Assembly: GCA_016721825.1 (NCBI GenBank)
Contig: JADKHI010000001.1
Coordinates: 769,084 to 833,083 of the forward strand
Length of the DNA: 64,000 bases
DNA from: Flavobacteriales bacterium
GTDB taxonomy: Bacteria > Bacteroidota > Bacteroidia > Flavobacteriales_F > PHOS-HE28
Direction of reading: 5' to 3'
In this document: positions 34,407-40,095 of the stretch, piece by piece
Layout: every line of letters begins with the position of its first letter
Position numbering within the stretch: position 1 is the stretch's first letter
The notes under the pieces: model-generated
The model's database searches: none
What the model was told of the DNA's origin: nothing
What the model saw: only the letters and a program-made list of their open reading frames with translations
Position numbers and translations under genes: made by a program

Positions 34407-34552
34407 GAAGCAGCGGAGCTCCTCACTGTTAGAGCTCGTCCTTGTCGCATGTGTTCCTGACAACGCCCCGGTGTTCGTTGATCTTTGGAAAGTCACAAGT
34501 GGCCCGAACGCTTGCTCCGCAGCGATCGGAACACTTGCGACAATGAGAGACG

Positions 34553-35197
34553 CTAAAGGTGCCGCAGCTTCTTCAGCTCGTCAAGGAGTTGAGCGGCGCT
34601 ACCCACCCGCATAGTGATCTGGTTATTCATGTTCTCTCTCAATGCGTCCGCATACGTGCAATGGAACATATGATCGATGTGGGTCTCATTCTCCTCGCGG
34701 TCATTGGATAGCTTGAAGTGCTCAAGATTCAGCTTGTAGAATGAATCAAGGATGGCTGCGGGCATCTTCTCCCGATGATAGTCTATTGAGTAAAACGCCT
34801 CGAATAACAAGCCGTACTTGGACTTGTCGTGCAGACATCGATACACCTCTTGCGGGGGAAGGCGCTTGATGAGGTCACTGTTGAACATTGGCATCTGATC
34901 AATCTGCTTTTTCTTCTCAGCATTGTACTGCTCAATACTGGAGCTCATTATCACCTTCCGCACCTGCTCATAATCTCTGATAAGCCTCTCAGTCTTTGGA
35001 ACCAGAACGTCCTTGACATTGTGTTCAATGGCCTTTCTGAACGCTCTTCTTTGCAAGCCCTCCTTGACCTCATCGTACATCGCTTTAAGGATGAGCGCAA
35101 TTGCGGCGCCGGCGAAGGCAATGAACAGTTTCTCAGCAAGCTCATGTGTCATAAGGCCAAGATATCCAAAGAGCACCCAGCATTCTTTTTCACCCAC
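34553..35197 (-). CDS. hypothetical protein with N-terminal TM helix, encoded in a lower-GC segment
   Basis: 214-aa ORF with non-repetitive, Lys/Glu-rich composition. Local GC is roughly 45-50% against about 61% in the flanks. No recognisable domain. Confidence 0.4.
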   Translation of the reverse strand: MGEKECWVLFGYLGLMTHELAEKLFIAFAGAAIALILKAMYDEVKEGLQRRAFRKAIEHNVKDVLVPKTERLIRDYEQVRKVIMSSSIEQYNAEKKKQIDQMPMFNSDLIKRLPPQEVYRCLHDKSKYGLLFEAFYSIDYHREKMPAAILDSFYKLNLEHFKLSNDREENETHIDHMFHCTYADALRENMNNQITMRVGSAAQLLDELKKLRHL

Positions 35198-35342
35198 GGC
35201 CCGAAGAGGGATACTCTGAGGGAGCAGAACTCAGTGCTTGGCTCGGCGTGAGCGATTGAAGCGGGTACGCCGCAGCGAGGAACGCGCGAGGAGTACGAGC
35301 TAAAAGCGCGACCCGAGGCTTTGCGAGGGGCACGCCCAAAGA

Positions 35343-35480
35343 ACCTACCTGCTCAAGTACATGCTCCGCTCCCCATACACCTGCCTGAAGAACGGATCCT
35401 TCAGGTCCTTGATAGTAGATGGCCTCACCGGTGCCATCTCGGGCCTGAGGCTCTTGTCCACATTGGAGAACTTGTCGGTG
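35343..35480. repeat. R3: near-identical copy of the carB 3' end (one mismatch over the last 70 bp, small indel further in)
   Basis: ORF 35345..35572 (-) ends ...STIKDLKDPFFRQVYGERSMYLSR*, identical to the carB C-terminus. Confidence 0.7.
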
Positions 35481-35481
35481 T

Positions 35482-36826: not shown

Positions 36827-36834
36827 TTGCCGGT

Positions 36835-37281
36835 TCATGGGAATACCTTCTGGGTCGTCATGAGCCACGATCGGCAAGCACTATCCATTCCATAGGTCAT
36901 ATCCAGGTACAATGTCAGCGAGCTAGACTCATCGCGCAGAGAACAACTCCATCCTACTTGCACCTTTGGATACACGCGGTTGATAGAATCAATCACCTGG
37001 ACGCTGCCCCAGTATTGCTCCTTGCCAAGCCCTTGCGCCGTGTCCTCGTACTGGATGATGTTCCTCATGTTCTCTTCGCAGAAAGACTCAATCGAGTCCC
37101 GGACCGCGTGAGGTTGAACGAGCACATGAAGTGAATCGTAGTCGGTGGCCCCATTCCACAAAGCGGGATGTTCATTGACCCAAGCTTCAACTTCCTTTTC
37201 ACCCGGTTTCGGTTGGCAACAAGACAGGAGCATGCTCGCAAGGAGCATGACCAGCAATTTCAACCTGAAAGCGTAGATCAA
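36835..37281 (-). CDS. hypothetical lipoprotein
   Basis: N-terminal MLLASMLLSCCQ lipobox. 148-aa ORF located between carB 3'-end copies R1 and R2. Confidence 0.4.
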   Translation of the reverse strand: MIYAFRLKLLVMLLASMLLSCCQPKPGEKEVEAWVNEHPALWNGATDYDSLHVLVQPHAVRDSIESFCEENMRNIIQYEDTAQGLGKEQYWGSVQVIDSINRVYPKVQVGWSCSLRDESSSLTLYLDMTYGMDSACRSWLMTTQKVFP

Positions 37282-37283
37282 AA

Positions 37284-37425
37284 CTACCTGCTCAAGTACA
37301 TGCTCCTCTCCCCATACACCTGCCTGAAGAACGGATCCTTCAGGTCCTTGATGAAGTAGATGGCTTCGCCGGTGCTCTTCATCTCGGGCCCGAGGCTCTT
37401 GTCCACGTTGGGGAACTTGTCGAAG
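37284..37425. repeat. R1: native 3' terminus of carB, copy 1 of a triplicated direct repeat (putative att core)
   Basis: CTACCTGCTCAAGTACATGCTCC(T/G)CTCCCCATACACCTGCCTGAAGAACGGATCCTTCAGGTCCTTGAT... recurs at 36732-36826 and 35343-35480. Confidence 0.7.
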
Positions 37426-40095
37426 CTGAAGACGGGCACCTTGATGGCGTAACCGTCCAGGTGGGGCTTGAAGTGGAAGTCCTTGAGCTTGGCGCCGAGC
37501 ATGACCTTGGTGGCCCAGTTGACGTAGGGCTCGCCGTAGGCCTTGGCGATGAAGGGCACGGTGCGGCTGGCGCGGGGGTTGGCCTCGATCACGTACACCA
37601 CCTCGTCCTTGATGGCGAACTGGATGTTCACCAGGCCCACGGTCTTCAGCGCGAGGGCGATCTTGTGCGTGTGCTCGCGGATCTGCTGGATCACCTTCTC
37701 GCTGAGGTCGAAGGGCGGGAGCACGGCATTGCTATCGCCGCTGTGGATGCCGGCGGGTTCAATGTGCTCCATGATGCCGATGATGCGCACCATCTCACCG
37801 TCGCAGATGGAATCGCTCTCCGCTTCGATGGCGCCATCGAGGAAGTGGTCGATGAGGATCCGGTTGTCCGGCATGTTGCGCAGGATGTCGAGCACCTGGG
37901 CCTCCAGTTCGTCCTCGTTGATCACGATCTTCATCTTCTGTCCACCGAGCACGTAGCTGGGGCGCACGAGCAGCGGGAAGCCGAGCTCGCGGCTGGTGGT
38001 GATCGCCTCTTCCGCGGTGTTGACACCGGCGAACTTGGGGTACGGGATGCCGAGGTCGCGGAGCAGGGTGCTGAAGCGTTCGCGGTCCTCGGCGAGGTCC
38101 AGGGCTTCGAAGCTGGTGCCGATCACCTTGATGCCGTAGCGGTCGAGCTTCTCGGCGATCTTCAAGGCCGTCTGCCCGCCGAGCTGCACGATGACGCCCA
38201 CGGGATCCTCGTGGAGGATGATGTCGTAGATGTGCTCCCAGAACACCGGCTCGAAGTAGAGCTTGTCGGCGGTGTCGAAGTCCGTGCTCACGGTCTCCGG
38301 GTTGCAGTTGATCATGATGGTCTCGTAGCCGAGCTCCTTGGCGGCGAGCACGCCGTGCACACAGCAGTAGTCGAACTCGATGCCCTGGCCGATGCGGTTG
38401 GGCCCTGAGCCCAGCACGATGATCTTCTGCTTGTCGCTGCGTACGCTCTCGTTCTCCTCTTCGAAGGTGCTGTAGTAGTACGGCGTCTTCGCGGGGAACT
38501 CACCGGCGCAGGTGTCCACGAGCTTGTACACGCGCTTGATGCCGAGCTCGTTGCGCTTCTTGTACACCTGGCTCTCCAAGCAACGCAGCAGGTGCGCCAC
38601 CTGGCGGTCCGCGTAGCCCTTCTGTTTCGCTTCGAAGAGCAGGTCGCGGGGGATGGTGTCCAGCGTGTACTTCTCCACCTCCTTCTCGGTGAGGATCATG
38701 TCCTCGATCTGCCGCAGGAACCAGATGTCGATGCGGGTGAGGTCCTGGATCTTCTTGAAGGGGATGCCGGCCTTGATGGCATCGTACACGTGGAAGAGGC
38801 GGTTCCAGCTGGGGTTGGCGAGGCTTTCGAGCAGGACCGCCACATCGGTGGTCTCCTTGCCGTCGGCGCCCAATCCGTTGCGCTTGATCTCGAGGCTCTG
38901 ACAGGCTTTCTGCAAGGCTTCCTGGAAGCTGCGGCCGATGCCCATGGTCTCGCCGACGCTCTTCATCTGCACGCCCAGCCTGCGGTCGCTGCCCTCGAAC
39001 TTGTCAAAATTCCAGCGCGGCACTTTCACGATGACGTAGTCGAGCGTGGGCTCGAAGAAGGCGCTGGTGCCGGTGATCGGGTTCTCCAGTTCATCCAGGC
39101 GGTAGCCGATGGCGAGCTTGCTGGCGATCTTGGCGATGGGGTAACCCGTGGCCTTGCTGGCAAGCGCGGAACTCCGGCTCACACGCGGGTTGATCTCGAT
39201 GGCGTAGATCTCCTCTTTCTCATCGGGGCTCACGGCGAATTGCACGTTGCACCCGCCGGCGAAGTCGCCGATGGCGCGCATCATCTTGATGGCCTCGGTG
39301 CGCATGCGCTGGTAGGTGCGGTCGCTGAGGGTCATGGCTAAGCGCCACGGTGATGCTGTCGCCGGTGTGGATGCCCATCGGATCGAAGTTCTCGATGGAG
39401 CAGATGATCGTGACGTTGTCGTCCTTGTCGCGCAGCAGCTCCAGCTCGTATTCCTTCCAGCCGAGGAGCGCCTTGTCGATCATCACCTCGTGGATGGGGC
39501 TGATCTGCAGGCCGTGCTTCAGCAGCTTGTCAAACTCGGCGGGGTCCTTCACGAAGCTGGCACCGGCACCACCGAGCGTGTAGCTCGCACGGATCACCAG
39601 CGGGAATCCGAACTCCTGCGCCACCTTCTTGCCTTCGAGGAAGCTGGCCACGGTCTTGCTCGGCGCCATGGGCACACCGATCTTCTCCATCAGCTGGCGG
39701 AACTGCTCGCGGTCCTCGGTGATGTCGATCGCCGCAACGTCCACACCGATCATGCGCACGCCGTGCTCCTTCCAGATGCCGAGCTTCTCGCATTCGATGG
39801 CGAGGTTCAGCGCGGTCTGTCCGCCCATGGTGGGCAGCACGGCGTCGATCTTGTGCTTCTTGAGGATCTCCTCGATGCTCTCGACGGTGAGCGGCTTCAG
39901 GTACACGTTGTCCGCCGTGACCGGATCGGTCATGATGGTGGCGGGGTTGCTGTTGATCAGCGTGACCTCGATGCCTTCGTTGCGGAGGGAGCGGGAAGCT
40001 TGGGAGCCGGAGTAGTCGAACTCGCAGGCCTGGCCGATGACGATGGGTCCGCTCCCGATCAGGAGTACGGAGCGGATGGAAGTGTCTCTTGGCAT
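37284..40095 (-). CDS. carB: carbamoyl-phosphate synthase large subunit, short form of about 936 aa, with an apparent single-base frameshift near 39337-39343
   Basis: N-terminal MPRDTSIRSVLLIGSGPIVIGQACEFDYSG. Two ATP-grasp halves. Oligomerisation region ends ...GPEMKSTGEAIYF. ORFs 39220..40518 and 37284..39335 overlap in different frames across the conserved GDSITVA / MTLSDRTYQRMR junction. Confidence 0.85.

Follow-up and report, generated by a model that had tools for sequence, protein, structure and literature searches.

Triplication of the carB 3' end

The window analyzed here is the whole 64,000-nucleotide (nt) stretch of contig JADKHI010000001.1 (positions 769,084 to 833,083; assembly GCA_016721825.1) from a Flavobacteriales bacterium, and our subject is an array of small genes at the 3' end of carB, the gene for the carbamoyl-phosphate synthase large subunit (37284..40098, minus strand; the ~937-amino acid (aa) Bacteroidota form). 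Downstream of carB, partial copies of the last codons of this gene, hereafter tails, alternate with single open reading frames (ORFs), all on the minus strand. The native tail, R1 (37284..37425), is attached to carB and is followed by a short copy, R2 (36732..36827), and a long copy, R3 (35343-35480, or up to 35485 with its ATG). The standard short tail unit (37284-37382) comprises the final 32 codons and the stop codon and encodes MKSTGEAIYFIKDLKDPFFRQVYGERSMYLSR*; the peptide is that of the native CarB and is conserved across 80 carB genes of Bacteroidota. Near its center, the tail contains an inverted repeat with 7-bp arms and an 8-bp spacer, CCTGAAG-GATCCGTT-CTTCAGG (37323..37344, minus strand).

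R2 is 92% identical to R1 over 98 nt, with a 2-nt deletion close to the stop codon, and R3 is 91% identical to R1 over 139 nt, with deletions of 4 and 2 nt that are jointly frame-neutral; within the final 70 nt, R3 and R1 differ at one position, as originally noted. A 27-mer common to R1, R2 and R3 occurs exactly three times in the window and in 0 of 100 shuffles, which, together with the coordinates, confirms the presence of three direct copies that had been predicted from the sequence alone. No gene end other than that of carB is duplicated in the 64 kb. The junctions of R2 and R3 are matched at 99-100% identity by 10 contigs (independent NCBI, ENA and Logan assemblies, from other samples), so the tail copies are not the assembly artefact that the original prediction had allowed for.

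Both extra tails are mini-ORFs. R2 (29 codons) opens with an ATG at 36827-36825, 7 nt past the stop codon of the preceding cargo gene, and ends at 36740-36738; in the related loci L161-L164, it is annotated as a 29-aa gene. R3 (46 codons) starts at an ATG (35485-35483) that overlaps the stop codon of the yhcG-like gene described below (ATGA), ends at the canonical TAG (35347-35345), and is annotated as a 46-aa gene in L159, L160 and L162.

The gene between R1 and R2 (cassette 1) encodes a 148-aa lipoprotein-like protein (36835..37281, minus strand; GC content 51-53%) that yields no Pfam match. This ORF begins 3 nt past the carB stop codon; from the ATG at 37248, as annotated in L160-L162, the product would be 137 aa long. 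Cassette 2, between R2 and R3, carries a gene for a YhcG/DUF1016 nuclease of the PD-(D/E)XK type (35482..36558, minus strand; 358 aa; DUF1016_N, E=5.9e-46, and YhcG_C, E=7.5e-65), and the identical protein is found on 11 contigs. Past the last tail, yet within the variable region of the locus, there is a 214-aa ORF with an N-terminal hydrophobic stretch (34553..35197, minus strand) and no Pfam match. The three cargo genes are as described in the original prediction, with Pfam support for YhcG only, and the lower GC content distal to R3 is likewise borne out (47-48% vs 62-64% in carB).

The carB gene itself is split over two ORFs (37284..39335 and 39220..40518), both of which match the CPSase_L_D1/D2/D3 domains, with an apparent frameshift near 39330 in this assembly. 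The span of the gene (37284-40098), this frameshift and a product that, as in other Bacteroidota, lacks the MGS-like domain correct the earlier description of carB. Related metagenome-assembled genomes (MAGs) built from long reads show similar breaks at other positions (carB is split elsewhere in L160 and L001), and therefore the disruption at ~39220-39335 is probably a consensus error of long-read MAG assembly rather than the mark of a pseudogene. In L159, no gene was called at carB.

Polymorphic carB arrays in related Flavobacteriales

A scan of species-representative genomes with the C-terminal half of CarB yielded 8 close relatives, all of them Flavobacteriales MAGs, with 90-94% aa identity in CarB. 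Four of these 8 species-level relatives carry extra partial carB ends with different spacing and cargo; the other four are single-tailed. MAGs with arrays include JADKFY01, CAMCAZ01, JADJCS01, JAGNUG01 and CAXXZJ01; JACJZJ01 and JACJZH01 are without. A scan of metagenomes with a 22-nt tail pattern added 78 contigs, largely from activated-sludge, wastewater and freshwater assemblies. Altogether, 51 of the 87 related loci contain 2-8 copies of the carB tail: two in 27 loci, three in 14, four in 4, five in 5 and eight in a single one (L134, all within 5.5 kb), with one tail in the remaining 36. Empty sites are represented by L005, L006, L083, L124, L138, L151 and L153. The original prediction had called for such a comparison and had named a conserved, non-polymorphic arrangement as the outcome that would argue against insertion; what we found is empty carB alleles, alleles with other cargo, extra tails in half of the close relatives and arrays of up to eight tails. 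The array in the window is a single example of a structure that is both widespread and polymorphic.

Among 72 more distant carB loci of Bacteroidota, tail duplication was detected only in L078. In this AT-rich, distantly related member of the Flavobacteriales (9015-10625), carB is followed by a gene for a protein sorted by the type IX secretion system and then by a 63-nt copy of its own tail, with a separate terminator hairpin for each tail copy. L078 thus appears to be a case of the same hotspot that arose independently.

Contigs that are 97-99% identical in their shared parts differ by whole cassettes. In one group of near-identical contigs, L124 is empty, L148 contains one cassette, and L133, L100 and L092 contain at least two. 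L084 and L144 are also near-identical and differ by cassettes; L108 carries a remnant in place of the two cassettes of the window, with a downstream flank that is 99.4% identical; and five of the cassettes of L134 are absent in L126, where they would lie between two similar tails. The arrays are exchanged between lineages: L126 and L134 are 98.8% identical over the array vs 90% over carB, L001 and L094 are 97.5% identical over the array vs 90% over carB, and array tails are closer to a common consensus than to the tail of the host's own carB. The tails being mosaics that have passed from lineage to lineage, the ages of insertion that the original prediction read from the identities of R2 and R3 to R1 cannot be upheld.

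A further comparison concerns L159 (4606-17077) and the window (27481-40206), which are 99.6% identical over 9.6 kb downstream, 91.5% in carB and 70-75% further upstream. At the junction, a 251-nt deletion in L159 fuses CarB in frame to the C-terminal part of the lipoprotein-like ORF. L159 could be a case of recent transfer ending at the tail, or else a chimeric assembly.

Compact single-ORF cassettes

The arrays include 94 inter-tail segments, 71 of them distinct, of which 60 are no longer than 1300 nt; a few are 2.5-9 kb long. A single forward ORF, oriented as carB, fills at least 70% of the segment in 50 of the 60 short segments; a reverse ORF of that size was found in 4. Cargo ORFs mostly start at -3 to +21 nt relative to the stop codon of the upstream tail, nine of them with an ATG that overlaps this stop codon (ATGA), and mostly end at -7 to +19 nt relative to the start of the next tail. 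The outliers, with leaders of 107-232 nt, are mainly YhcG cassettes that carry palindromes of their own.

The cargo comprises more than 36 unrelated families, mostly without a Pfam match (ORFans), plus defence genes. Among the recognizable cargo proteins are YhcG, a CAP-domain protein, AIPR, Bro-N, Fic, DUF7660, GmrSD_N, DUF5677, and a SacI-type restriction enzyme with a C5 methylase, along with weak matches to 23S_rRNA_IVP. YhcG is the commonest cargo, with at least 17 distinct loci of which the majority are carB arrays, and cassette 1 of the window recurs in L137; thus, as the original prediction had suggested could be checked, the cargo does recur beside carB ends elsewhere.

Tails are maintained as ORFs

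The tail unit usually consists of the last 32 codons of carB, and sometimes of 46-75 codons. Among 40 distinct short array tails, 38 open with the ATG of Met652, and 30 are intact from the ATG to the canonical stop codon. The lengths of the intact short tails (96, 99, 120, 123, 126, 132, 153 and 156 nt) are all multiples of 3. Longer copies start at Met612 (L135, L094 and L126) or, like R3 of the window, have an ATG that shares nucleotides with the YhcG stop codon. Whatever its length, a tail copy is thus cut back to an in-frame start codon beside the preceding stop codon. The rates of substitution at the three codon positions are 0.085/0.064/0.153 in array tails and 0.061/0.031/0.197 in native tails, that is, both are biased to the third position, the native tails more strongly. 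The ORF is preserved in the tails.

The length variants comply with this pattern. One type results from a paired -1/-2 deletion that restores the frame; another (B) contains a 24-nt GC-rich hairpin, GGAGCCTGCCCCGCACGTTGATGCGGGG, in the spacer of the central inverted repeat; and the third (A) contains a ~33-nt GC-rich hairpin, (CGTC)ACTGCGAGGCCCGGCTTTGCGGGCCGTGGCAGAG, just ahead of GCAGGTG. Both hairpins preserve the reading frame and sit at the central inverted repeat, which is also a recurrent breakpoint in the related loci. They are seen, for example, in L001 (9553-9625), L002 (9316-9390) and tails of L134, L122, L094 and L150, and a probable native carB end in L149 (1-222) carries B in frame. 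The hairpins are reminiscent of in-frame palindromic elements such as those of Rickettsia. We considered whether A and B are dispersed repeats and rejected this, as they are found only inside tails in the sequences in hand.

Boundaries of the variable region

The full variable region of the window (32551..37283) extends from the carB stop codon to the first downstream gene that is syntenic with the relatives, a SnoaL gene (31906-32550). Following R3, there is a terminal element of ~95 nt, TTGGGCGTGCC...CAATCGCTCACGCC (35245..35339, minus strand). In the single-tail loci L083, L124, L138, L151 and L153, an element of ~95-115 nt, TTGGGCGTGCC...CAATCCGTCACGCG, directly abuts the carB stop codon, and in the occupied arrays (the window, L001, L094, L122, L003 and L108), the terminal element comes after the last tail. 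Given that the same element is found at empty sites and at array ends, the cassettes lie between carB and the tail that is still joined to the original downstream flank, as would be expected from recombination within the tail.

Read on the strand complementary to carB, the terminal element resembles the Flavo-1 RNA (RF01705), with 38.1 bits in L122 (2839-2922) and 29 bits in L003 (9143-9217), both below the gathering score of 42; the copy in the window has no Rfam match, and there is no credible Rfam match in the window at 31-41 kb. Some copies of the element have a 5' extension, CCCTGAGC..GTCGAAGGG, which forms a long hairpin. Between carB and R3, there are no terminator-like sites on the carB strand. 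Within a plus-strand ORF (32460-34406), the segment 33165-33775 contains direct repeats with a period of ~189-198 nt; this gene encodes an SBBP/Por_Secre_tail protein, and these are ordinary beta-propeller protein repeats.

Insertion habit of YhcG

The YhcG cassette of the window has two copies of a 29-nt palindrome, CAATTGTCCAACA-NNN-TGTTGGACAATTG, upstream of the gene (36656-36684 and 36699-36727; span 36656..36727, minus strand) and a third inside the coding sequence (CDS; 36187-36215, minus strand). Every YhcG homologue examined contains a perfect palindrome of 27-29 nt at +344 of the CDS, within the IVQQxVxQLPW motif, and those of Flavobacteriales have one or two further palindromes upstream (the window, L131, L132, L099, L094 and L001). 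The external palindromes co-vary with the internal variant of their lineage; there are four variants (GTCCAAC, GTGCAAC, TTTGCAAC and GTGCAGCA), and the changes include compensatory ones that alter amino acids.

Homologues with 60-67% identity occur in other taxa (L169, 6001-7068; L170, 5909-6946; L172, 6001-7074). These distant genes are single co-oriented insertions between genes of operons (permease/amidohydrolase, hydantoinase A/B and hsdM/hsdS), and L169 has palindromes at 5922-5950, 6314-6345 and 7069-7096, one of them right after the YhcG stop codon. In the same locus (12202-12645), a 23S_rRNA_IVP gene is likewise wedged in an operon; both families recur as carB-array cargo. The same insertion habit of YhcG is seen in a Rickettsia plasmid (PMC4316617). 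No gene ends are duplicated at the YhcG insertions in other operons. Taken together, the sequences suggest that YhcG is a self-contained selfish or autoregulated gene. YhcG is not needed for the arrays, because L122, L002 and L004 lack it.

A model of array turnover and its alternatives

The reading we favor, with moderate confidence, is that the carB 3' end anchors a polymorphic cassette array, the turnover of which is driven by recombination between tails, most likely homologous, and that the array extends the carB operon. The unit would usually consist of a single cargo gene and, behind it, a spare copy of the last codons of carB, and recombination inside the tail copies would add, remove and exchange units: gain via Campbell-type insertion of tail-bearing DNA, and loss via tail-to-tail deletion. 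Each such event would leave carB complete and shift older tails downstream, towards the fixed terminal element. The tail, which encodes part of an essential enzyme and is for this reason conserved between lineages, would act as a portable patch of homology of ~100 nt. Ordinary homologous recombination is judged the most likely engine.

For expression, we envisage that transcription would run on from carB into the array, extending the operon. All stretches of the array would be kept translated, so that ORFs would be linked by translational coupling and both polarity and premature termination in untranslated RNA would be avoided. Compatible with this, a second reason for keeping tails intact could be that, after a tail-to-tail deletion, any tail may become the actual C-terminus of CarB.

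We found no recombinase in the window or at the loci, as originally stated. No tyrosine-recombinase motif was detected by a regular-expression search of ORFs of at least 150 aa in 158 loci and the window, no recombinase or transposase was found in Pfam scans of ~50 flanking or cargo ORFs, and no recombinase, integrase or integrase fragment was found in the 94 inter-tail segments. The tail was not found on phage or plasmid sequences by blastn searches of collections, nor on viral contigs by pattern scans of IMG/VR; 19 viral matches to a 20-mer belong to an unrelated phage gene. Folding as DNA, the tails show no attC-like structure (z = 0.24 for plain, -1.19 for B-type and 0.19 for A-type tails; -0.49 for the bottom strand), and no R-box motif was seen in them by eye. 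The left edges of the tail copies span q1 to q142, partial carB copies of 76-141 aa have differing left edges, and the A/B state of a tail shows no linkage to the cargo gene on either side. The failure to find a recombinase or tail-bearing mobile DNA, the varied left edges and the unlinked A/B state together favor homologous recombination; partial copies with varied edges fit a homologous single crossover with a carB-bearing DNA circle, and a fixed-site recombinase would not produce them. Of the integration hotspot proposed in the original prediction, the insertion hotspot stands, with carB left intact and the content polymorphic; the site-specific component appears less likely, as no recombinase was found nearby, no phage, plasmid or viral contig with the tail was found, the left edges vary, and the tails behave as coding sequence that is kept translatable.

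Several observations weigh against the model of homologous recombination. More than 36 unrelated genes lie between the tails with spacers of 0-20 nt, which is unexplained by homologous recombination alone, and such compactness is typical of enzyme-driven cassette systems. The recombinase search consisted of a motif expression and Pfam scans of ~50 ORFs and was not exhaustive, and the region covered, 8-37 kb around each array, leaves a recombinase acting in trans beyond view. Identity breakpoints fall at the central inverted repeat of the tail (q188-200) in 4 independent pairs of close relatives, and several loci (L003, L108, L148, L132, L095 and L142) contain right-half-only tails with a fixed left edge at q199.

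A recombinase encoded elsewhere is a serious, if minority, contender. Such an enzyme would act on the tail as in integrons, staphylococcal cassette chromosome (SCC) elements or Xer-exploiting elements, with CCTGAAG-GATCCGTT-CTTCAGG as its site and, as the mobile unit, a right half-tail, the cargo and a left half-tail. In Xer-exploiting elements and pdif modules, units are bounded by 28-bp dif-like XerC/XerD sites. In its geometry, the 7-8-7 inverted repeat resembles the core site of a tyrosine recombinase; the breakpoints in four independent pairs, the right-half modules in six loci and the compact, co-oriented single-ORF cassettes also speak for this reading; and cargo of cluster-0 is always preceded by a right half-tail ending in CGATGA, at any position in the array. 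Trans-acting recombinases are common in Bacteroidota. Against this, none was found in the 87 loci or the 64-kb window, left edges range over q1-q142 with left halves conserved in a coding style, and tails have no significant fold. The signals at the center are ambiguous, because the codons for LKDPFFR impose the inverted repeat, which relatives without arrays have as well, and because the center is where tails first differ (the A/B insertions), which confounds the clustering of breakpoints. Half-site tails were also considered as evidence of crossover and set aside, most of them being deletion derivatives or BLAST splits.

The remaining explanations appear improbable or worse. The YhcG nuclease could cut carB tails, with repair from a tail-cargo-tail template copying cassettes in, akin to homing; this is improbable, even though YhcG is the commonest cargo, has its own co-varying palindromes and, outside carB arrays, forms single-gene operon insertions like free-standing homing genes (PMC4316617). 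The palindrome is unrelated to the tail sequence, the insertions in other operons come without duplicated gene ends, and the gene is missing from arrays that are covered in full or far into the downstream sequence (L122, L002 and L004). Slightly less probable still is that large islands or prophages carrying an integrase entered at carB one after another, left the repeats as scars and were later reduced to single genes. At tRNA hotspots, tandem att repeats are known to accompany degraded elements (10.1101/2020.12.28.424599), and the few inter-tail segments of 2.5-9 kb would fit; but none of the 94 segments contains an integrase or a fragment of one, 50 of the 60 short segments are exact single-ORF units, the tails are still intact ORFs, and the tail is on no phage, plasmid or viral contig. 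The suggestion in the original prediction that the cargo units are decay products finds no support here; the units are compact single-ORF cassettes. As for the extra copies being an artefact of assembly or a chance similarity, the window is probably from a MAG and its carB is frameshifted, but given the 10 independent assemblies, the shuffles and the same architecture in 50 other loci, this can be practically dismissed.

Significance and relationship to known systems

The carB arrays may represent an undescribed gene-capture system of Flavobacteriales, in which the translatable 3' end of an essential gene serves as both recombination unit and coupling spacer, so that promoterless foreign genes, defence genes among them, could be stacked and expressed behind carB without an adjacent dedicated integrase; this is a possibility to which we give somewhat less than even weight. 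We file the arrays as a gene-end insertion hotspot or cassette array, with a substantial chance that they are a distinct capture system. If the arrays are real and active, integron-like stockpiling of genes would be possible without intI or attC, from a conserved gene end alone, and in-frame partial copies of the last codons of a gene would be a simple signature for finding further cases. They would also provide a natural case for the expression of horizontally acquired genes in Bacteroidota, where initiation is mostly not driven by Shine-Dalgarno sequences. In wastewater and freshwater Flavobacteriales, the locus also offers a supply of uncharacterised small proteins and defence genes.

In the literature on hotspots at carB, on integron-like arrays of Bacteroidetes and on flexible islands, we found no description of carB-anchored arrays. 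In staphylococci, SCC and pseudo-SCC composite islands sit at the 3' end of rlmH (orfX). They resemble the carB arrays in that tandem units, each bounded by a direct repeat of the gene end, build up behind a conserved protein-coding gene that remains intact, many of the units lacking a recombinase of their own. The SCC repeats, however, are 15-18 bp long vs 99-225 nt in carB arrays, and SCC units are kilobase-scale and multigene, some with CcrAB recombinases, whereas no recombinase was found in carB arrays. More generally, integrative elements at gene 3' ends (tRNA, tmRNA, guaA and rlmH) share with the carB arrays the direct repeats of the gene end, the regeneration of the gene, and the coexistence of empty and occupied alleles among relatives; the carB arrays differ in having no integrase on any unit and no free tail-bearing element that we could find.

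In tRNA-anchored islands and tycheposons, newcomers push older elements inward, with partial copies of the target gene in between and degraded units devoid of integrases (10.1101/2020.12.28.424599). The carB arrays, too, repeat the end of the target gene between units; tycheposons, however, target tRNA genes, have att repeats of ~40 nt and abundant integrases (937 elements; 10.1101/2020.12.28.424599), whereas the carB repeat is a translatable protein-coding end. The rAID-1 arrays of Bacteroidales consist of immunity genes headed by a conserved XerD-family recombinase, with non-coding repeats (10.1101/471110). These, like the carB arrays, are integron-like arrays of small genes with repetitive intergenic sequence and skewed GC content, in the same phylum. 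The gene that heads the carB array, in contrast, is carB, with no recombinase found, and the repeats are carB coding sequence.

We also considered a diversity-generating retroelement and rejected it: there is no reverse transcriptase in the scanned ORFs, the tails differ at all bases rather than specifically at adenines, and there are up to 8 copies. In complex class 1 integrons (ISCR1), circles made by a rolling-circle transposase, which include a portion of the 3'-conserved segment, insert by homologous recombination. There, as here, a partial duplicate of a conserved segment (the 3'-conserved segment) flanks the captured genes; at carB, no rolling-circle transposase was found, the units are single ORFs, and as many as 7 repetitions of the process are seen. 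The resemblance to integrons proper extends to several features: compact, co-oriented, mostly promoterless single-ORF cassettes of diverse, mostly unknown function (here predicted from sequence); a repeated unit of ~60-150 nt and variable length between cassettes, with stop codons often inside the repeat; and a single upstream promoter, which we infer for the carB array. Unlike in integrons, there is no intI near the carB array, the anchor is the end of carB instead of an attI site, and in place of a folded attC (z about 0), the repeat is a housekeeping coding sequence that is kept as an ORF.

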